From positions 63,612,001 through 63,676,000 of the forward strand of contig OX597818.1 of assembly GCA_951406725.2 (NCBI GenBank): a stretch of 64,000 bases of DNA, in the 5' to 3' direction. The notes under the pieces were generated by a model, which had not been told where the DNA came from, did no database searches, and saw only the letters and a list, made by a program, of their open reading frames with translations. Of this stretch, positions 4,866 through 59,493 are shown one piece after another. The translations under genes were made by a program, and so were the position numbers. The stretch comes from Octopus vulgaris (Eukaryota). Every line of letters starts with the position of its first letter. Within the stretch, counting starts at the first letter, position 1.

Positions 4866-5196
4866 TTATTTAATATATGCTCAACGTTAATTTTTAAAAC
4901 GCACCGCTATTAGAAGGCGAAGGAGTAATACAACACTTGCAGGTTTACGAGGACTAATGAAAATTACATTTACAAGAGACACCTCAAATTGGTGTCTTAC
5001 TGTATTTAAAGCGTTTACCACGATCATAAATCACAGAATATATGATTACAGTAACAAAAGCATGATAATCCTTTATTTCAAATTGAAATAATTCTTGATG
5101 CACACTCCAAAGAGATTATTTCCATCTTGTCTGTATTCTCTTATATTTACAAGGATTTCGTAATTAGACAATCACAAAAGTGTTTACTCTTTTACT

Positions 5197-5599
5197 CTTT
5201 TACTTGTTTCAGTCATTTGACTGCGGCCATGCTGGAGCACCGCCTTTTAATCGAGCAACTCGACCCCAGGACTTATTCTTTTGTAAGCCCAGTACTTATT
5301 CTATCGGTATCTTTTGCCGAACCGCTAAGTGACGGGGACATAAACACACCAGCATCGGTTGTCAAGCAATGATAGGGGGACAAACACAGACACACAAACG
5401 CACACACGCATATATATATATATATATACATATATACGACGGGCTTCTTTCAGTTTCCGTCGACCAAATCCACTCACAAGGCATTGGTCGGCCCGGGGCT
5501 ATAGCAGAAGACACTTGCCCAAGATGCCACGCAGTGGGACTGAACCCGGAACCATGTGGTTGGTTAGCAAGCTACTTACCACACAGCCACTCCTGCGCC
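5197..5599 (-). mobile_element. full-length SINE family A
   Basis: Minus strand starts AGGCGCAGGAGTGGCTGTGTGGTAAGTAGCTTGC; collinear with 57312-57727. Confidence 0.92.
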
Positions 5600-6136
5600 T
5601 TCTATTTCTGCGTTTCTATATTTTGATTTATTATCGCACTTTGTTTGGGCTGATAGACTGAAAGAAATATCATTACTGGAAATTTATATAGCATTTGAGT
5701 ATATGATACGCTTGTTATTTTGTCAGCGGGTAATCCCCTAGCATCAATGCTGATGTTAGAAATAATGTGGAATTCTTATTGTTTTCAATTTCTATTTATA
5801 CATATGCTAGCGGTAAGGTACCGAGGCATATCCTTATAATGTTTGTAATTTGTCAGCGGAAAATTGGATACGAGTAGGATTAATAACGAGCAATACATTT
5901 ACTTAGTAAACATCACAATCTAAAATGCATTCTGTGTGTGTGTGGTGCGCATTGGGCTGAGGAAACAGAAAACATTTGATCGACAATATTAGTGGCTGGT
6001 TCATGTTACGACAACAAACACTCCACGAAACTTACATAATGTTAAATCTCTTTAGATATATGTTTTTCATATTTTGTGCATGCTGCCATTCTACAAAAGA
6101 ATTTGACATGAAAATTCTATAACAAATCACTCTTTT

Positions 6137-6360
6137 ACATTATTTACATTATTTACATTTGACGGATATTTGTCCTCAACTTGCTTGTTTTTAACAGAAC
6201 GTTTCGGCTGATATACCCTCCTGCCTTCATCATGATCAAGGCTGGAGGGTATATCAGCCCAAACGTTGTGTTAACAACAAACAAGTTGAGGACAAATATT
6301 CGTCAATTGTACATACTGTAAATATTGTACATAATTCCTCGTCTCTTAAATATAGAACTT
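6137..6360. repeat. spacerless palindrome of a hammerhead-bearing PLE-type tail (family H1)
   Basis: Arms mirror around 6232/6233 (TCA|TGA) out to about 6137/6328. Each arm carries TGATGA-AGGCTG...CAGCC-GAAACGTT, with point mutations. Confidence 0.85.
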
Positions 6361-6424
6361 TAAAATCATAGTTATATGTTCGTACTTGACGGAATTCGGA
6401 CAATTATGACATTGACATTCTTAC

Positions 6425-6563
6425 GTTATTTATATTATTTACATTATTTACATTTGACAGATATTTGTCCACATCTTGTTTGTTGTTAATATCCGTCAAA
6501 TATAAATTATGTAAATAACGAAAATAATATATATAATTCCTCATCCTTATATATAGAACTGTA
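6425..6563. repeat. second inverted pair of H1 tail fragments
   Basis: tttacatttgacagatatttgtcc...gttaa is joined to tatccgtcaaatataaa...tatagaactgta, the reverse complement of the same tail. Confidence 0.7.
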
Positions 6564-6957
6564 TTGACATTTTTAGTGTAACGTCTGCTAGGCGCCATCT
6601 TCTCTGAAAAAATCTCAGAGACTAAATGATATCTGTTTAAAATATATCATTCCCATCATCCAAAGACAGTAGATACTATGATATATTTTCACCAAACTAG
6701 TGAAACTAAAGCAAGCAACTTGCTACATTGGATTGATGCTTACCGTAAACAGTAGAAAGTGTTCTCTGTACAGTGAATATTTAACGAAAATAATTTTCAT
6801 CCTCAAAAAGATGGCGGATACCTTATATACAAAGTATAACAATTAACACTTATATCCTGTCTGTAGGTTGCATAGAATATTATTGAACTTAACGCAGGCC
6901 ACGCCATCTAGTATATGGATTTGAATTTTGCATCAGTACATTTTATCATATAGACTT

Positions 6958-7202
6958 TTATTCTTTTATTCGTTTCAGTCATTTGACTGCGGTCATGCTG
7001 GAGCACCGCCTTTTAGTCGAGTATATCGATCTCAGGATTTATTCTTTTTAAGCCTAGCATTTATTCTATCAGACGTTTTTATGCCAAACTGCTAAGATAC
7101 AGGGACGTAAACACACCACCATCAGATGTCAAGCGTTGTTGGTTGACAAACACAGATACACACACACACGCACGCACACACAGACACACAGACACACACA
7201 CA

Positions 7203-7245
<43 letters not shown>
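6958..7245 (-). mobile_element. SINE family A, 3' half, ending in (CA)n/(TA)n
   Basis: tttcagtcatttgactgcggtcatgctggagcaccgcc... matches the family A tail. Confidence 0.85.
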
Positions 7246-7255
<10 letters not shown>

Positions 7256-7259
<4 letters not shown>

Positions 7260-8113
7260 CAGAATTGAACAGCCGAAATTTGCTATGATGATTCGGTGTC
7301 TGACTGAAGATTGAAGGCTTCGAATGATTTGTCTGTGTTCCGTGTTCGTCCCTTCCTGTATTTCACGTTCATTATATATAAAAACATTCATTCTTATATT
7401 ATTGCGGCGTTACGTGCACCCCCCCCCCGTTTGTTTGTCCAATTTTAAACCCTGCACGACTTCTATACACACTGTCTTTTACTACCCGCCATTGCTTCTT
7501 CACCAAACTTTTTGGCGCCCTCCGATTCTTCCCCTCTCTTCCTCCCATCCTCCTCCCCTCTTCCTCCCATCCTCCTTAATCCCTTCTTTCTCCTTTTCTC
7601 TTGGTCACTGATTCTGTCCCCTGCCTTCCACCCTCTTTGATTCCCTCTCTCTCTGTCTCTCTTTCTCTCTCTCCTGCGACCTGCTGCTTCTTAAACCATT
7701 CTGTTGGCCTTCGTATCTCGACCAACATGTGTCCCCGCTACCGAAACGGTAATTATTTCTACGCCAGCTATGTTGTTGTTGTGTTTTTGTCTCATTTGGT
7801 CTAAAGTCGTATGACAACCACCGTTATATATATTTTGTTTATTCATTACTGTTTTCAATTTCGTTTTCGTCTCTTGTATTCACATCCGTCTTGTGCGTTC
7901 ACATTCCTGTCTTCTACCAAGAAATCTAATGCTTACAGCTTAGTTTTTTTTCTTGGGGCTGGCCGAGTTGGAGCAAATATCAGAATTGAACAGCCGAAAT
8001 TTGCTATGATGATTCGGTGTCTGACTGAAGATTGAAGGCTTCGAATGATTTGTCTGTGTTCCGTGTTCGTCCCTTCCTGTATTTCACGTTCATTATATAT
8101 AAAAACATTCATT

Positions 8114-8120
<7 letters not shown>
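7256..8120 (+). mobile_element. non-coding 721-bp unit plus identical 144-bp terminal redundancy (partial tandem), inserted in (TA)n; PLE-type non-autonomous element
   Basis: 7256-7399 is identical to 7977-8120 (offset 721). (TA)n flanks both ends; a related copy lies at 27091-27862 on minus. Strand inferred from the RNA structure. Confidence 0.8.
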
Positions 8121-8173
<53 letters not shown>

Positions 8174-8177
<4 letters not shown>

Positions 8178-8380
8178 ATCCAAACAAGAAAGCACAAAAA
8201 AATCACAACGCGAGGGTGTGGAACAAATATATCATTATTGGACGGTCAGGAAAAAAAGAAAGAAGGAGGGTTTAACATTTCGAGCGGAGCTCTTCGTCGG
8301 AAACATAGGAGAGGGAAAGATCCAGAGAAGGGAATACAGAGGAAAAAAACCGACAACGGTACACACGCGGTCACATACAT
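8174..8380 (-). mobile_element. PLE-type terminal fragment (family H2) with minimal hammerhead at 8270-8304
   Basis: Minus: GUUU-CCGACGA-A-GAGC-UCC-GCUC-GAAA-UG-UU-AAAC. Homologous to 27901-28100; abuts (TA)n. Confidence 0.75.
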
Positions 8381-8507
8381 ACATACGACGGGCTTCTTTC
8401 AGTTTCCGTCTATTAAATCTTTGGTCGGCCCGAAGCTATAGTAGAAGAATGCCACACTGTGGGACTGAACCCGGAACCACGTGGTTGGTAAGCAACCACT
8501 CCTGCCA
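8380..8507 (-). mobile_element. SINE family A 5' part, with deletions
   Basis: cgacgggcttctttcagtttccgtc...gggactgaacccggaaccac matches the family A head. Confidence 0.8.
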
Positions 8508-14212: not shown

Positions 14213-14298
14213 TTGGCTGATGAGTACTCAGCATCTTAAATCTGTTGTAATACTTACAACATTCAAAAAAATGATGTAGTATGAAACGATCGTACCAA
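14213..14298 (+). ncRNA. type I hammerhead ribozyme, intact core (family H3)
   Basis: Stem I UUGG/CCAA; CUGAUGA 14217-14223; 59-nt stem II (GUACU/AGUAU base, UGUUGUAA/UUACAACA apex); GAAA 14283-14286; palindromic ACGAUCGU; GUA site, cleavage after 14294. Lies about 135 bp upstream of (TA)n. Confidence 0.88.
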
Positions 14299-20509: not shown

Positions 20510-21052
20510 ACAAATCCCGAAATTTTGGGAGAGAAGCCAGTCGATTAAATCGACCCAAGTACGCATCGACTCCCAAAGAATGAAAGGCAAAGTCGACCTC
20601 GGCGGAATTTGAACTAAGAACGTAATGACAGACGAAATACCTATTTCTTTACTACCCACAAGGGGCTAAACACAGAGGGGACAAACAAGGACAGATAAGC
20701 GGATTAAGCCGATTATATCGACGCCAGTGCGTAACTGGTACTTATTTAATCGACCCCGAAAGGATGAAAGGCAAAGTTGACCTCGGCGGAATTTGAACTA
20801 AGAACATAGCGGCAGACGAAATACCTATTTCTTTATTACCCACAAGGGGCTAAACATAGAGGGGACAAACAAGGGCAGACATAGGTATTAAGTCGATTAC
20901 ATCAACCCCAGTGCGTAAGTGGTACTTAATTTATCGACCCCGTAAGAATGAAATGTAAAGTTGACCTCGGTGGAATTTGAACTCAGAACGTAACGGCAGA
21001 CGAAATACCGCTAAGCATTTCGCCCGGCGTGCTAACGTCCCTGCCAGATCGC
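20510..21052 (-). mobile_element. tRNA-headed SINE family C (Meta/MESC-like core), tandem trimer with 184-bp period
   Basis: gacgaaatacc recurs at 20631, 20815 and 20999. Minus-strand core CTTTCATCCTTTCGGGGTCGATTAAATAAGTACCAG; head present only on the first unit; monomer at 62422-62625. Confidence 0.85.
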
Positions 21053-22180: not shown

Positions 22181-24254
22181 AGATGTCGCACAGTATACAA
22201 TATTGTGTGGTGCTGATTGAATAAACTGTGTTCATCGGAGCTTTGAAGTGTTTGTCGTTTCACAACTAGGACTTCAGACTGAAAGTACTTTACTCAATAT
22301 GCATGCAGATCGAAGTAATGCCGAATTTTAGAATACACCTAAATTGTAGGGATTTCTAAAGTTTTCCGATGTTTCTTCTCAGCTTAGGTGGTATTGAACC
22401 AAATTCTCCGATGACAATCGGGATAACCTTTATATTTGACTCTCGTGGCTGCCACATTTCAGCCATCTCAATTCTCAGGTCTCTATATTTATCAATCTTT
22501 TCTCTTTCTTTCATGATGGTATTGTGATATCCTGGCACTGCCACGTCAGTTATTAGGTACCCTTGTTTTCCCTTCTAAATGTTACCCTGCCCTGCCTTCT
22601 GTGCTCTAATACCTTTTCTGTCTGGAAGTGAAAGTCGCAGAGGATTCTTGCTTTCCTCTTGTCGTCTATTACTTACGGTGTATGTTAGTACCAAACACCC
22701 GAAACCTCATATACTTACGGCCATTGGGTTATTTGGGCTAACTTGTGGTGTCTACGCATGTGCTCTTTCCGCGCAAGACTTCCACAAGTACTAAGAATAT
22801 GAGCCATTCTTTCGGCCCTCATTCCCAAACATTCTGCAGAGGTCCGTTGCACTTGTGTGGTATATATTCTTTTTCACTAAGTTGGAATACAATGCCTGGT
22901 CCTGGGCAGCGATGTTTAGGCTAGCGGTATTCTTTTTAAGTCACTCTCGTTAAGCCGCTTCCATGATCATTGCTGCTCTTTTAATTTATTGGTTTCGCGA
23001 TGGAATTGACCATGTAATTCCGTACAGATTAGGGCTTCTTCTCATTCATTGGATGTTCTTGTTCAAAATTCATGAGCACTTTCAAGTTCATTTTTGTTAC
23101 ATCCTTCTACATTAGCAGCATTCTGTAGTGGGTCTCAATTATTGTTTACCAAATATTTTGCCATGTTTAAACTTTCACAGTTAATGCACTCTTTTACACT
23201 AATCATCCCACGTCCACCTGTAGCCCTCTCCATGTAGAGCCTCTGTACATGCGCCTTAGGGTGGAGTGCACCATACGTTGTCATTGTCTTTCGGATTGTG
23301 CGATCGAATTGGTTAATCTCCGCTTGTGTCCATTTCAAAATAGGTGAATTATAGTGGACTACAGTAGCCGCCCATATGATGGCTGTTACAAGGTTCCTTG
23401 TGTTGAGCTTTGATTTCAAGAGAAGTTTGAGGCGCTTGAAATATGCAATGGTGACCTTGTCTTTAATTTCTCTGTTCAAGATATTGTCCACCTCCAGGGT
23501 CCCAAGGTACTTGTACGCATCATCATTCGGGTCTATTATTTCTCCGTTTGGCAATTCTATGCCGCTACAATTTACTCTTTTCGTCCGCTTCAAAGTAAGC
23601 ACCGCACCCTTTAAGATACCCAATTCCATCTCTATATCCTTGCTGCACATATGCACAGTCTCAACCAGCCTCTCCATTTAAAGCCGTGTTTTTGCGGAGT
23701 TTAAAATCATCCATGAAGAGAAAGTGGTTCAGACGTGGCCCATTCCTTCTCAGCTCATAGTGGGCGTCGAGTTTGCGTAAGACTACAGAAAGTGGGATCA
23801 AGACTTTAACAAATAACAGAGGTTAACAAGAGTCTCCATGGAAGATACTTCTTTTGATTGTTACTTCGGTTACATTCTGGTTGTTACAAGACGTGTTTTC
23901 TAACTAGGCATGCAGTCCTTCATCAGTGCACACACTTTCTCAGCTCTTCCAAACATGCCGAGTGTTTCCAAAATCCACGAATGCGGCCACATGTCGTAAG
24001 ATTTTTTATATTATCCAAGCTATGTATTAAATTTTTCGTACTGTTTACAATTCTTCATTATAACCTTGTCTATCACAAGGTGGTCCCTGGTGCCCTTGGA
24101 TCCTTTCTGTTTTACTAGCAATAGATTGTTTTCCGCAAGGGGGCTTCTCGTTAATAATTTCCATAAGAGGTTAAGACAAACACAGTGTCGGTAATTGCCA
24201 ACCTCATTGCCCTTCGACATTGCCCTTCATTAACAATATTGGTTTTCTATTTTG

Positions 24255-26858: not shown

Positions 26859-27058
26859 TATAACAATGAGGGTCTTTGCAACAAGTTGCTAGACCACATA
26901 CCGAAAGTATTAGAAATAGCAGCCAGAGGACTATTATTTCTTTGTTGTCGATGGGGACATATTTTTTCTAGTAAAAGAAATAATAGTCCTCTGGCTGCTA
27001 TTTCTAATACTTTCGGTATGTGGTCTAGCAACTTGTTGCAAAGACCCTCATTGTTATA
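26859..27058. repeat. perfect 85-bp inverted repeat with 30-bp spacer, between (TA)n tracts
   Basis: 26859-26943 is the exact reverse complement of 26974-27058. Confidence 0.95.
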
Positions 27059-27092: not shown

Positions 27093-27859
27093 TAAACAGT
27101 AAAAATAATTACAGACATGGACAAGAACATGAAACGCCACAGAGAAGACACAAGAACCACAGGACGGGACATTCGAAGCCCTCAATCATCAGTCAAGAAC
27201 CAGATCATCTTAGCAATTTCGGCTGATTAATCTTGAGATTGCTCCGATATGGGCAGCCCGCCAAGGGAAATCTAAGCCAAGCGCATTAGATCCCCTGGAA
27301 GAAAGCTTCGAATGTATACAACACGAGGACGGAAAACGAACGAAGTACACGAACAAAAATACAGAATACGTGACACCAATAAGAATACAAAAACGTAAAA
27401 ACAATAACGGTAAAAATAAAAAATAAACAACAAAACAAAACCAGGACGTAGGACAAGGGTCTTTCGACAGGACGAATTGAGTATGGGGCTGGCTTATGAA
27501 GTTGTGCCTAATGGCCGCAGGGAGACGAACAAATACGTGTTGCTTCGGCGGCTGCTGGAACGAAAAGAGCGCTCAACAGCGGCTAGCGGTCACGTGAGAA
27601 CAAAAGACAGGAGAAAGGGACAGATGAAAAGAGAGAGAAGGTGGACGAGGGAGGAGAAGAAAGAGACAGATCGAGGGGGCTGGAGGTGAGAGAGATAGAG
27701 AAACGTAGAAGGGGGGGAAGACGTTTGGAGAGGGAAAGAAAGGAAGGGGAATAAGGGAGGAGAGAGAGAGAGAGAAAGAGACAGATTAAGAGTCGTATCA
27801 ATGCTTGAGAAAAAATATACTTATCGTATAAGGACAATTGTGGATACGTAGCCGCCGAT

Positions 27860-27900: not shown

Positions 27901-28100
27901 GTTAATCCAAACAAGAAAACACAGAAAAAAAGAAAAAAAAAGGAGAAAAAAAACACAGCAACGCAGGACGTGGAACAATTAAAGTATTATTGACGCTCAG
28001 GAAAGAAGGGAAGGATAGTCTAACGTTTCGAGCGGAGCTCGTCGTCGGAAACAAGGAGAAGGAAAGATCCCAAAGAGGGAAGACAGAGGAGAAAATATTT
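27901..28100 (-). mobile_element. PLE-type terminal fragment family H2 with minimal hammerhead at 28018-28052
   Basis: Minus: GUUU-CCGACGA-C-GAGC-UCC-GCUC-GAAA-CG-UU-AGAC; homologous to 8174-8380. Confidence 0.75.
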
Positions 28101-30040: not shown

Positions 30041-31083
30041 TATAATATTTATATATACATTTATACATATATATATGTATATATATATGTATGTATATAT
30101 ATATGTATATATATATATATATATATATACATACACACATATATATAGGTGTATAACTACATATACACATATAAATATGTACAGATATGAGCAGACATGT
30201 TCACACTCAAGAATACTCATATACAGACACAGACACAAACACACGTATACACTCACATACACACGGACACACACACACGCACTCATACACTGCAACACAC
30301 GAATAAATATATATATCAATGGAATCATAGACTTATTTTGAAAACTTAATTTTTGCTGAAATGGAAATTTTCTAAATGCGATGCGAAGGAACTGACAGCT
30401 TTATGAAGAGAATTATGCGTTTAAATGTATATAATTATATCGACCTGGAAATAATATTCTAAATATGGAAATATGAATGAAAATCATTTAAGTGATTTAA
30501 CCACATATCAGAAAATATAAATGGTGTCAATATGCATATTTCTTCCATTTTATTCAATGTGCAATGCGATAATAATTTTATGTGTTAGTTTGGGAAAGGA
30601 AATATTTAATCTATGAAATATTACTTCTGTTGTAAATTCGTCACAAAACGTATCAAGAGATCCCTTAGAATATATTATAAAGCTTGCCATACAAGCACAA
30701 CTTATTATCCTCAATGAATATAATACCCACTTTTAACTTACTGCAACAATAGCAGTCGGTGAAGTGCCAGGAGCAAGTATTGTTTGAAATATCTAATATG
30801 AAGACTTCAGTGTACCATTTCCAAGTGTTATTATGACATTTTTGTAATTGAAATAACACAAAGTAGCTCAGCAACTGAAATATTGGTGGACATTCTGAGA
30901 TATGAACGCAATATACATAGACTATCTATATGAAAACACATGGGTATTTCTCTAATATCTATACACTTGTCAACCGCCACTTTTACTATGCATTTTCCAT
31001 GAATTAATGCATCTACTGCTTACTCTTGTCCCTAGAATATCTTAATATATTTAATTATTGAAGATTATAACAGTTTACCTCTA

Positions 31084-31260
31084 TATGTAAGAGACGAGGA
31101 ATTCTGTACTTTATTTACATTATTTACATTTGACGGATATTTGTCCTCATCTCTTTGTCGTTAACGCAACGTTTCGGCTGATATACTCTCTTGGGTTCAT
31201 CAGGTGTCTGGGTGCAAATTTCGAACCAGGGTTCTGATTTCTAAAGTATTTTTCGATGTA
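31084..31260 (-). mobile_element. H1-family tail with hammerhead at 31163-31208 (stem II decayed)
   Basis: Minus: GACAC-CUGAUGA-A-CCCAA...CAGCC-GAAA-CG-UU-GCGUU. Confidence 0.8.
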
Positions 31261-33472: not shown

Positions 33473-33583
33473 ACACACACTCGCATATATCTGTGTATCT
33501 GCGTGCAAAATATGTGTATGAATATATGTACACACACGTATATACAAATCTATGCATATACATATATATATATATATCAATAA

Positions 33584-33687
33584 ATGGTGTTTTTTTATTT
33601 TTTATTTTTTATTTTCCATATACCCCTTTTTATTAAAATTTACTTTCAATTTAGCATTCTGCCTTATTATAATTTTTCCTCTCCTAA
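33584..33687. repeat. ~105-bp (TA)n-associated repeat, near-identical to 36038-36142
   Basis: ttttccatatacccctttttattaaaatttactttcaat.tagcattctgccttattataatttttcctctcctaa occurs in both. Confidence 0.85.
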
Positions 33688-34662: not shown

Positions 34663-35358
34663 GTGTGTGTGTGTGGTGTTTCTACGTGTGTGTAGATATC
34701 ATTGATCAGACAAATTCATCTTAAACAGTTTGTGGTTATTTATTACGCAGAAATACATTTATTTCTAAACAATTTTTCTTTCATTAAATGCGACATCACG
34801 TAATTTCATTTGCTGCAGATCGTTTTCCATTCGTTTTCGCTTACACGTTGCTATGATTCCCTACCTGCCCTTGATCAAAAGATTCAAGCGTGTTTTCGTT
34901 GCAATCTATTTGCCATGTTGTCGTTTGTCGAAACATATATACTCTACACCACTCCTGCTCTCCTTACAAACATGTTTGACGGATACGTATAATGATTCTT
35001 AATGATGTTAGCGTTAAAGATTTGCCTTTTTGAAACAACGTGATGTTTTGTTTACGGTCATGCTATATGACTGACATAAAGGCTGAATTATATTCAATTC
35101 ACTCCACGGCGACTTTGTCATGAGCAGAACACTGGGTAACTATTATTTCTAAAATAAAGAAGAGCCACATTAGGAACTGACAGTTAACCAACACGACAAC
35201 TACACTTTCCACAGCTAATTCAAGTATTTTCATGAATTCCATTGCCATTTGGTTCCACGTCTAATTACGCTGCGTGACACCTTGCGTAAGTATTTTCTAT
35301 TATAGCCTCGGGCCGACCAAAAGGCATGTGAGTGGATTTGGCAGACGGAGTGTATATA

Positions 35359-35422
<64 letters not shown>

Positions 35423-35425
35423 GCC

Positions 35426-35476
35426 AGCTTCCTGAAGATTTCATCTGAATGAAACAGTTCTAGTCCTGTAGAAGCT
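35426..35476 (+). ncRNA. type I hammerhead ribozyme (family H4, copy 1)
   Basis: Stem I AGCUUC/GAAGCU; CUGAAGA 35432-35438; short stem II UUC/GAA with a U.U base; GAAA 35451-35454; stem III ACAG/CUGU; GUA site, cleavage after 35470. Confidence 0.88.
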
Positions 35477-35586
35477 CCTATAAAATAAATGACTTTACTC
35501 TGCAATGTATTGAGTACCTTATTTACTGTGGTTAACCCCGACTCAACCCGGGACCTACATATATTTATATATATAAGATTGGCGTC

Positions 35587-35656
35587 CCTGCTGATGAGAG
35601 CTCCGCATAACAAATTATTTTACTTGCTAATATAGAGTTAGAAACCATGGTCCATG
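35587..35656 (+). ncRNA. type I hammerhead ribozyme (family H5)
   Basis: CUGAUGA 35591-35597; 43-nt stem II with AGCUC/GAGUU base; GAAA 35641-35644; palindromic ACCAUGGU; GUC site, cleavage after 35652. Stem I CCUG/CAUG has one mismatch. Confidence 0.72.
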
Positions 35657-35871
35657 AAATAGATGGTAAATGTTTTTATATTTCATTCCCTTCGAAATTT
35701 ATCCATAATAGTGTTTTGGATTTGGCTACTCCTTCTAGCGTGGTCGGTCACCTCTTATGTGCTTAAATGTACATTGTATTTATATGAAGGATATATAGTC
35801 TATTGACTAATTTTCTACATGATAGGACACTAGTAGTAAAAAAATCCCCAAATGTTTTCTTACCCTGATAT

Positions 35872-35908
<37 letters not shown>

Positions 35909-35909
35909 T

Positions 35910-35958
35910 GCTTCCTGATGATTTCTTTTGAATGAAACAGTTCTAGTCCTGTAGAAGC
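35910..35958 (+). ncRNA. type I hammerhead ribozyme (family H4, copy 2), isolated between (TA)n tracts
   Basis: Stem I GCUUC/GAAGC; CUGAUGA 35915-35921; GAAA 35934-35937; ACAG/CUGU; GUA site, cleavage after 35953. Confidence 0.88.
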
Positions 35959-35970
35959 TCCTTCTATATA

Positions 35971-36033
<63 letters not shown>

Positions 36034-36168
36034 TACATGGTGTTTTTTTCATTTTTTATTTTTTTATTTTCCATATACCCCTTTTTATTAAAATTTACTT
36101 TCAATATAGCATTCTGCCTTATTATAATTTTTCCTCTCCTAAATTATATATATATATACATATATATT

Positions 36169-36216
<48 letters not shown>

Positions 36217-36704
36217 TGTTGTTATTTGTGTACCCATCATCACTTGAGAACAGATTTGTGTGTGTTTACCTCCCCGTAGACCTATAGAACAAGCAACAGG
36301 CTTGTCCATTTCTCCCACGAAGAGGTGGTGCTCCAGCATGGCCACAGTGAAATGAATGAAAGAAGTAAAAGAATAGTAGAATAAAAGAATTCTTTCTCAA
36401 ATTTATCCCCCTAAAAGCAGTGTTACGAGTACGTGTATTAGATTTTGGCCGGTGGTTGTCTACAATGCAAATGGTGATTATGGTTCTTGTCATTATACAT
36501 GTTACTTCACTTTTCCTCATTTTATGCCAGGCTAATGATACGACCTTTCGTCTACAACTCTTTAGAATATTCCAAACTTGGTGCCAAACGATGTAAATGC
36601 TTCTTTGTGCTGTGAAAGCATATGTAGAATGATTAACAGCTAGGGTTCCCTAGAGAGGCATTCCTCAGAGAAATAGTGATCGGGTGTATTTCTGAAAAGT
36701 TGCA

Positions 36705-49023: not shown

Positions 49024-49110
49024 TAATGAAGACTGGAGAGTATATCAGCCGAAACGATGAGGACAAATATCCGCCAAATGTAAGTCCTCATCTCTTAAAT
49101 ATTGAACTGT
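49024..49110 (+). mobile_element. deleted H1-family tail fragment
   Basis: aatgaagactggagagtatatcagccgaaacg...gaggacaaatatccg...cctcatctcttaaatattgaactgt. Confidence 0.7.
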
Positions 49111-51665: not shown

Positions 51666-51980
51666 CAAAAGACACCATTATCACTATAAATTCTCCGTGA
51701 AAAACACAACATAATAGGCTAGGAGAAGAAAGAAAATGAATTGAGACTTTGGATAACCGTGTATATGATCGTGTCTCGGGCTTAAAATAATGAAATCTTT
51801 ACCTTTTTGCCTTCATCAGTATGGGTTTACCGACGCTTATGCAGGCAAAAAAGGTAATGATTTTTAAGCCCGAAACACGATCATATACACGGTTACCAGA
51901 GACTTAATGAATTTTCTTTCTTCTCCTAGCCTATTATGTGTTTTTCTCGGATAATTTATAGTGGTAATATTGTCCTTTGA
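51666..51980. repeat. imperfect ~150-bp inverted repeat with hammerhead-like cores facing outward from the centre
   Basis: Arms 51666-51819 / 51837-51980. Minus arm CTGATGA-AGGC...GCCC-GAGAC; plus arm CTTATGC-AGGC...GCCC-GAAAC. Confidence 0.8.
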
Positions 51981-57311: not shown

Positions 57312-57472
57312 CAGGAGTGGCTGTGTGGTAAGTAGCTTGCTAACCAACCACATGGTTCCGGGTTCAGTCCCACTGCGTGGCATCTTGGGCAAGTGTCTTC
57401 TGCTATAGCCCCGGGCCGACAAACGCCTTGTGAGTGGATTTGGTAGACGGAAACTGAAAGAAGCGTGTCGTA

Positions 57473-57527
<55 letters not shown>

Positions 57528-57727
57528 TTGTGTGTCTGCGTTTGTCCCACTAGCATTGATTGACAACCGATGCTGGTGTGTTTACGTCCCCGTCACTTAG
57601 CCGTTCGGCAAAAGAGACCGATAGAATAAGTACTAGGCTTACAAAGAATAAGTCCCGGGGTCGATTTGCTCGAATAAAGGCGGTGCTCCAGCATGGCCGC
57701 AGTCAAATGACTGAAACAAGTAAAAGA
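57312..57727 (+). mobile_element. full-length SINE family A
   Basis: caggagtggctgtgtggtaagtagcttgc...aaatgactgaaacaagtaaaag; reverse complement of 5197-5599. Confidence 0.92.
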
Positions 57728-59493
57728 TTATATGAATGTTATTATTATTTCTGTGAAGGCGCCAATTACATTTAGCATCGTTTATACCAGATATAGACGC
57801 ATAATTTTAGCGGAGAGAACTTGTTATTTTTTGCTAGAGTAATTAAAAGTACATTTATTATTAAAACATTATTTAAATGTTTCAGAATAATGCAATTTCT
57901 CCCCACAGTGATAAAATGAACTGGAATAAACATTCAGTGCTAAACGAGTACAGAATATATTACAAACGAAATTTAAGAAAAAATTTACAGACGCAAATAT
58001 TCTGGTCGCAAGAAATCTATAAATGATGATATACTTTCAGAATGAAGATGAACGATCGTATGTTTACATTTTTATTCACGTTCAAATGAAGGCCTAGCTG
58101 AAGGGAACCTTACAAAACGATATGACACATATAATTACCTGCTGTGCTATAAATACGAATAGATAAATCAATTGAATGCTAAAGAAATCCTTATAATGTA
58201 ACGTGTACTTAACGCAATGCATGTCATAACGCGTGCAAATGTATTATGAGAATCAATGCATACTCATTATGAAAGAGATCAGTATATTGGCAAAATGTAA
58301 TAGAGGACACCACATCTTACATTGCATTAGGCTTAAACAATCCAGAATCTCAAGAAACGTTTTTAGAAATAAAGTAAAACGAAAAAAATCCTGATTATTA
58401 ATAACAAGGTCCAGGGCTGTTAATACACGAAGAAACCACAAGTGAGAAATCTTATATTTTAATGGCATGATGAATATGCATTTACACTTAGAATATATTG
58501 CTGAGCAGCACCAAAGAGAAAGTGAAAGTAGGTGGTAAAATATATGTGAAAATATATACCTGATATGCATTATTACACAAGGGAACGAAACTGAGAGACG
58601 ATTAATATATAAATGATGCTAATACGATTACAGGATTATAAAAGAAACACAAGTCATCTTACCAAGAAAAGCTGTTAGTTCATTACCGATGCTATAAATT
58701 TCAAATTTGTAAAATGTCTTATGGTGATATTGAACACACATATTACAAAATCCTGCTGCTCTAAGTTTGTAACCTCATAATCTCACACAATTTCATCCAG
58801 AAAAATGTCATTTTGAAAATTTAAATACCATTGGTATACTTATTGTTTCAGACAGGATGAAATATAAAATAAAAGCAAAAACAAAACACAAGGATAAAAG
58901 CGATTGAACTATGAGACAATAGTGCTGTTAGAATACAGAAGCATACATATGCATGAATATCCGCATGTATGAGTAATCTTCAATATTCCTCCTAACAGAC
59001 ATAGTGAATGGTTTCGCAAAAATATTAAAACATGCAATGTACAGATTACGATGATGAAAAATATATGGAAGCTGTCCATACGCCTGTCACACTATTAGTC
59101 TCGAGGAAGACATTATGTCTTATCTTTATCAATATTTTCACATCAGATATCTATGAACGTAGAGCACTGTCTCTGCAATAATTACATTATCACTCTTATC
59201 TGTTACTCATTTTCATTTTATATTACGTATATATCTAAATTCATAAAATGTTGCATAAAACGTGCGCAATATATATATATACACATACACATGAATATAT
59301 AGAGAAATATATACACAGATGAATACAAAAATATGAAAATGCAAGCTGCTCGCATTCTAAGATCTAGTTTGTTTTTTTAAATTAGTTCAAGACTTTCTGT
59401 AAAAATACCTTTTACTTTTCTATATATAAGTATTACAATGCATGTTGTAGTGTGTAAAGAATCCGTACACATACTCCACAAATGCTCACAGAA

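Follow-up and report, generated by a model that had tools for sequence, protein, structure and literature searches.

Three type I hammerhead motifs on the plus strand, two belonging to one repeat family (H4a and H4b) and one to another (H5), very probably stem from separate insertions of 5′-truncated Penelope-like element (PLE) ends into a (TA)n target. Together with a fourth insert, the modules that carry them form a stack (35426-36142) that sits in the TA/TG tract found within a single old SINE-like copy.

Three hammerhead motifs within a SINE-internal TA tract

An initial annotation had placed three plus-strand hammerheads here, with cuts after 35470, 35652, and 35953, and the letters confirm them; the spacings of 182, 301, and 483 nt that it claimed follow from the three cut sites.

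H4a core, plus strand: CUGAAGA at 35432, GAAA at 35451, cut after 35470 (GUA)
H5 core, plus strand: CUGAUGA at 35591, GAAA at 35641, cut after 35652 (GUC)
H4b core, plus strand: CUGAUGA at 35915, GAAA at 35934, cut after 35953 (GUA)

Each motif combines CUGANGA, GAAA, and an NUH triplet; GUA occurs in natural hammerheads and is slower than GUC (PMC1636495; this and the papers below are cited for their accessible sections). The motifs are real and far beyond chance, because none of 300 shuffles reaches the observed counts. In the window (the whole 64-kb stretch of DNA analyzed), a strict descriptor finds four motifs against a shuffle mean of 0.003 (0/300 reach four), a loose descriptor finds five against 0.057 (0/300 reach five), and a descriptor admitting minimal forms finds seven in 64 kb against 0.07 (200 shuffles), a hammerhead density of about one per 9 kb. 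That the three are chance matches in AT-rich DNA would agree with the lack of an Rfam hammerhead match at the stack, whether at gathering score or at E up to 10 (window and two sub-stretches), and with local folds at the motifs that are no better than those of shuffles. Against this stand the shuffle counts, and also the H5 relatives, in which alternative stem II letters still pair and position 35655 carries G, keeping the helices in the family (unphased); we regard a chance origin as vanishingly improbable. Uniform placement would put three of five sites within 535 bp with a P of 0.002 (0.0005 when the same strand is included), so the cluster needs a cause.

Stem I, for which at least four contiguous pairs were sought, has six in H4a and five in H4b. 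Stem II of both H4 copies consists of three pairs behind a U.U, and stem III of H4a is 3 bp long with an 8-nt near-palindromic loop, the 14-nt stem III region of H4 being self-complementary at 10/14 positions. H5 has a 6-nt perfectly palindromic stem III, a stem II of five pairs behind a G.A, a long loop II, and a stem I with two contiguous pairs (four of the first six positions pair). This stem is broken by T at 35655; G, found in 69,193 of 71,208 (97%) of the family depth in sequencing run X1 (see below), would restore a four-pair stem I. G10.1-C11.1 is absent in all three motifs (U.U in H4a, G.A in H5, U.U in H4b), whose best stem II register has a mismatch there and no bulged base after A9. 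In secondary-structure energies, which leave out the tertiary core and cannot settle ribozyme activity, the forced H5 hammerhead fold stands at -0.3 against a minimum of -11.1 kcal/mol, and the local active monomer fold takes a predicted share of 0.001 for H4a and 0.05 for H4b. For this copy of H5, with its broken stem I, no cleavage is predicted, and the 182- and 301-nt products both require an H5 cut.

The modules and their host repeat are arranged as follows:

35245-35349, plus strand: 5′ half of the host SINE-like repeat, an old copy with decayed head, 76-77% identical to siblings (compared at 57312-57737, plus, and 5183-5600, minus)
35353-35422, unstranded: (TA)n/(TG) tract, left part of the host's internal microsatellite
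35426-35558, plus strand: H4a module, ~133-bp copy of a high-copy dispersed repeat, delimited by depth and by loose ends before 35426 and behind 35559
35426-35476, plus strand: H4a type I hammerhead
35559-35576, unstranded: TA tract between H4a and H5, 18 nt
35577-35867, plus strand: H5 module, ~290-bp copy from another, less abundant dispersed family that has several subfamilies, delimited by depth, pieces, and joints
35585-35658, plus strand: H5 hammerhead
35868-35909, unstranded: TA tract between H5 and H4b, 42 nt
35910-35973, plus strand: H4b, 64-bp H4-family fragment with hammerhead, truncated at either end; over 53 nt it shares 94% identity with H4a
35974-36030, unstranded: TA tract after H4b
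36031-36142, unstranded: fourth insert, in which no hammerhead was found, with a twin at ~33577-33687, insert and twin each having TA on both sides
36140-36219, unstranded: TA then TG, right part of the host microsatellite
36215-36390, plus strand: 3′ half of the host SINE-like repeat, pieces 71% and 85% identical to the sibling 3′ half

The H4a module begins within stem I and ends at TA, and no second H5 copy was found in the window. TA-rich tracts do separate the hammerheads, as first described, but they measure only 18 and 42 nt, and the remainder of the intervening DNA is the bodies of two repeats. Every module of the stack is bounded by TA on both sides, inside the SINE-internal tract. 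The host repeat is ~430 bp long, SINE-like, and has an internal TA/TG tract; the label refers to a tRNA-type head. ARAGORN finds no tRNA genes in the window. Five host copies in the window have both halves, separated by gaps of 38, 44, and 65 nt in three of them, 865 nt here, and 1,227 nt in the fifth. The fifth (6955-8495, minus) is likewise filled by TA-bounded inserts, namely, a minimal-hammerhead insert at 8348-8183, a TA tract, and an element whose two 135-nt repeats are identical. Because this second split copy is filled alike, inserts have stacked up in this tract more than once within the window, although nesting alone does not tell whether the inserts arrived one by one. Pol III read-through from the host repeat was also considered and appears improbable: its head is decayed in the alignment, and T-runs follow.

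H4 and H5 as separate dispersed families

We compared contigs of sequencing runs X1, X4, X5, and X9 (of 24 listed; three organism labels) with 35423-35870 at 80% likeness; the stretch compared ended at 35870, so that H4b lay outside. The summed depths are not copy numbers, being inflated by overlapping contigs (up to ~31-fold by our reasoning), and are used for orders of magnitude and ratios only: in X1 they are 0.12 to 1.9 million over H4 (1.9 million at 35453-67), 34,000 over the bin of the TA junction, 816 at 35588-602 where the H5 core starts, 340,000 at 35663-77, and ~200 at the H5 end. The locus-exact contig has a depth of 39.8 in X1, and the depth shapes of X4, X5, and X9 are the same as that of X1. 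The depth at the H5 start is ~1/2,350 of that at the H4 core in X1 and 1/3,440 in X4, from which it follows that copies of H4 are almost never accompanied by this H5 end, bearing in mind that diverged H5 subfamilies escape the comparison. We infer at least thousands of H4 copies and hundreds of H5 copies.

Individual contig pieces and joints give further detail. Among the 32 pieces shown of 9,081, 14 begin at 35562-35587, and none has H4 (up to 35558) running into H5 (from 35577), in a setting where contigs break at repeats. In two H5 pieces on the plus strand, the 75 and 138 letters further upstream do not match H4, and an H4-H5 joint or a go-back joint is seen in 0/11 joints. Loose ends of the H4 family reach a few bases further upstream, which would lengthen stem I, extend beyond the point where H4b meets TA, and end in CA as well as TA. 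H4 and H5 are two unrelated, widely scattered repeat families. They could be solo relatives of retrozymes that are tandem elsewhere, but nothing in the runs points to this.

Of 50 difference rows, 40 are shown; in these, H5 departs from >70% of the X1 depth at 13 positions, including 35655, and H4a differs from the family majority at three, none of them within the ribozyme. With 13 departures from the family majority, stem I among them, we read this H5 as a decayed copy. In X9, possibly an RNA run, the contigs of the family have a DNA-like profile and none of the eight pieces shown is locus-exact, which speaks neither for nor against expression. Locus-exact contigs covering 35684-35788 are present in X1 and X4, two runs with different organism labels; the run data suggest either that the H5 insertion is old or that the X1 and X4 labels are close.

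These comparisons also bear on whether the host has co-opted the stack to cut or end a plus-strand transcript. The H4a ribozyme has the major form of its family (no difference row is shown in 35426-35478), an AATAAA comes after H4a, and the locus-exact H5 stretch recurs under two organism labels, all of which would be compatible with a retained function. However, the AATAAA belongs to the H4 family sequence, the 13 shown differences of H5 are such as neutral decay would give, and a Pfam search of 150 frames revealed no host gene in the window. Co-option therefore seems to us highly improbable.

Partial tandems, retrozymes, and circular RNAs

The two H4 copies might be thought to derive from one partial-tandem PLE insertion (a pLTR pair) that was later split by H5 and trimmed at its 3′ end. 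They are of the same family and strand, lie 484 bp apart, and both start within stem I, and partial tandems are the normal form of PLEs (PMC8557442). H4a and H4b differ at 3/52 ribozyme positions (N7 and two in loop II) and by a 3-nt indel, and the 53 nt that they share (94%) are the only shared stretch within the stack. A pLTR-type pair would be abutting and identical; here an indel, TA, and H5 intervene. At one site where H4a and H4b differ (A/T), both forms are present among the family loose ends. The three ribozyme differences all fall at structurally free positions, as expected for separate source lineages (a post hoc argument), TA flanks both H4 copies, the shorter copy is the downstream one, and go-back joints are absent from the 11 joints.

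A useful comparison is the TA-flanked element at 7260-8115 (plus), whose direct repeats (7260-7394 and 7981-8115; 721 bp apart) are identical at 135/135 positions, with no TA between units; each repeat has a half-core (CUGAAGA), with GAAU in place of GAAA after it. The element is a classic partial-tandem (pLTR-like) insertion and makes a stronger retrozyme-like candidate than the H4-H5-H4 stack. A related stretch lies at 27170-27303. Because a single partial-tandem insertion should start out identical and abutting, two insertions fit H4a and H4b better, and we consider the split tandem unlikely.

The initial annotation had also raised a composite mobile RNA, or retrozyme-like cassette. In such a reading, double cleavage at the H4 motifs would free a 483-nt RNA that is circularized and reinserted as non-LTR retrozymes are. 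Two same-family hammerheads with intact cores do flank 483 nt of 31% GC (35471-35953), a length within the 51-972 bp range of retrozyme units (bioRxiv 10.64898/2026.07.22.740005). The GC value lies below the retrozyme limit (<45-50%), which is uninformative in a window of ~33% GC (26-41% per 2 kb across its 64 kb). The proposed H4-H4 dimer through the near-palindromic stem III can be drawn and, over 35423-35975, is favored by ~4 kcal/mol relative to two monomers, but takes a share of only ~1e-5 of the predicted ensemble (no tertiary energy included). The predicted circles, for which high self-pairing would be expected, are no better than 60 shuffles each (z of -0.24, -1.3, and -1.08), and in the accessible part of bioRxiv 10.64898/2026.07.22.740005, eight of nine predicted retrozyme dimers were uncleaved. 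Non-LTR retrozymes are defined by the tandem repetition of a single unit that carries a hammerhead. The stack lacks this: among the 119 tandem-repeat (TRF) rows of the window, none has a period of 182, 301, or 483 bp. With no tandem unit, with H5-start depths in X1 and X4 that are the small fractions of H4-core depth given above, with no H4-H5 link among the contig pieces and joints shown, and with circles lacking a special predicted fold, the composite cassette is not supported, and we judge it very unlikely. A 184-bp tandem repeat at 20565-21009 has 2.4 copies with 88% matches, and the hammerhead descriptors find none inside it.

Quite unlikely, too, is that TA stacking serves as a cradle of retrozymes, with the locus giving rise to a newborn 483-nt circle of two families and an abundant H4 variant working with U10.1.U11.1. 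Here, two same-family hammerhead ends in one TA tract would bracket whatever lies between; the H4-H4 dimer, functioning with U10.1.U11.1 and a 14-nt imperfect palindrome, would excise the bracketed chimera, and this would be circularized and open to reinsertion. If true, it would be a way in which new ribozyme-flanked circular RNAs arise from unrelated parts.

Known retrozymes resemble the stack in part. Non-LTR retrozymes (PMC7229834; bioRxiv 10.64898/2026.07.22.740005) likewise have type I hammerheads hundreds of bases apart on one strand, low GC, and a likely derivation from PLEs, and solo monomers are described for their families too (same sources). They are tandems of one unit (PMC7229834), whereas the stack consists of unrelated modules of two families split by TA. 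Plant LTR retrozymes also have two hammerheads flanking a noncoding stretch, but, in the material available to us, these are type III hammerheads within LTRs, accompanied by PBS/PPT and high GC, unlike the type I motifs, 53 shared nt, and 31% GC of the stack.

Probable Penelope-like ends and the setting of the window

Separate insertions of 5′-truncated Penelope-like ends, the other explanation offered at first (as stacked independent PLE insertions), are supported by the nesting in the SINE-internal TA tract and by the separate depth profiles. We propose that an autonomous PLE (with RT and a GIY-YIG endonuclease preferring (TA)n) would have mobilized ribozyme-bearing 3′ ends in trans, and that H4 and H5 ends would have been copied by target-primed reverse transcription. 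Each insertion would have left TA on both sides, and this renewal of the target is the proposed cause of the clustering. The shared strand of the three hammerheads would then be a 1-in-4 coincidence in a symmetric target, and the hammerheads would be passengers. Should a plus-strand transcript run through the locus, slow cleavage at the two H4 motifs, perhaps by a dimer, might release a 483-nt piece.

A TA tract lies within 230 nt downstream of 5/5 cut sites (three of which are this cluster), compared to 24% of random positions. The cut sites of H4a and H5 are 89 and 216 nt before the closing TA, and the modules are 5′-truncated dispersed copies. Minimal hammerheads occur in PLE terminal repeats, mostly as single motifs that probably derive from truncated PLEs (PMC4209133). 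A preference for (TA)n and heavy 5′ truncation characterize several PLE clades (PMC8557442), and PLEs tend to insert into or beside earlier copies (PMC6765202). One octopus genome has 190 Penelope-like families over 6.8% of its length; the word "ribozyme" is absent from the accessible text of that report (PMC13282606).

In its type I cores, short stem I, dimerizable palindromic stem III (a perfect 6 nt in H5 and 10/14 in H4), A/U-rich 3′ flank, many families per genome, and mostly single truncated copies, the stack is like the PLE minimal hammerheads (PMC4209133). It departs from them in that none of the three motifs has G10.1-C11.1, reported as highly conserved there, or the bulged, unpaired base after A9; in the 3-bp stem II and 14-nt imperfect palindrome of H4; and in the parent ORF, none having been found. 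The PLE hammerhead monomer tested in that study did not cleave, and dimers cleaved weakly in vitro (PMC4209133). As in Neptune, Hydra, and Naiad elements, the modules sit in a microsatellite with strong 5′ truncation, and the hammerheads are near the 3′ end as in Hydra and other canonical clades; Naiads, unlike the stack, are without canonical hammerheads (PMC8557442). The proposed PLE origin of H4 and H5 is drawn from anatomy and published systems, and the stack would work like a graveyard of PLE ends.

The window reads as repeat-rich noncoding animal DNA, with repeats that may resemble those of octopus. At gathering score, no Rfam family matches in the whole window. Pfam finds no RT or GIY-YIG frame in 150 of the 188 low-repeat frames (out of 414 frames of at least 55 aa), and its two weak matches are both below cutoff. 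Neither H4 nor H5 could be connected to a parent-element ORF in the window frames or searched contig collections, and H4 patterns have 0 matches in metagenome, viral, and prokaryote genome contigs. Two motifs searched for are absent from the accessible part of the PMC8557442 supplement, and the families were not found in the searched parts of supplements or in the accessible literature on hammerheads with Penelope and octopus or cephalopods; they may already be in the repeat library of PMC13282606 or in the supplements of PMC4209133 and bioRxiv 10.64898/2026.07.22.740005. The locus is probably ordinary and, as read here, adds another nest of PLE-type ends within a microsatellite and is of little consequence. 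Of modest value are two hammerhead-bearing repeat families that Rfam misses and that have nonconsensus 10.1/11.1 positions, along with the caution that, where animal genomes are rich in repeats, hammerheads lying close together are not necessarily parts of a retrozyme.

Other hammerheads are scattered through the window. Those at 8300 (minus) and 28048 (minus) belong to a minimal family with a CCGACGA core (C in place of U4), each ending at TA; the family has the bulged base after A9 and G10.1-C11.1, and its inserts lie at 8348-8183, with a twin near 27933-28095. Hammerheads at 14217 (plus) and 51431 (minus) have a long loop II and a 6-nt palindromic stem III, with TA 137 and 93 nt past the cut. 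Counting H4 and a loose end of the H5 family, U replaces C at 11.1 in four families. A further repeat family with a hammerhead-like core occurs at 6134-6362, 6426-6526, 31080-31256, and 49042-49083, and includes an inverted head-to-head pair at ~6214/6251. At 23138-23800 (minus), a 180-aa open frame with upstream sequence has no Pfam match and resembles what we take to be an RT remnant of a non-LTR retrotransposon; a hammerhead-like core lies just upstream at 23926 (minus). Short MITE-like elements with inverted ends are present at 26859-27058, adjoining a TA tract, and at 51666-51979.
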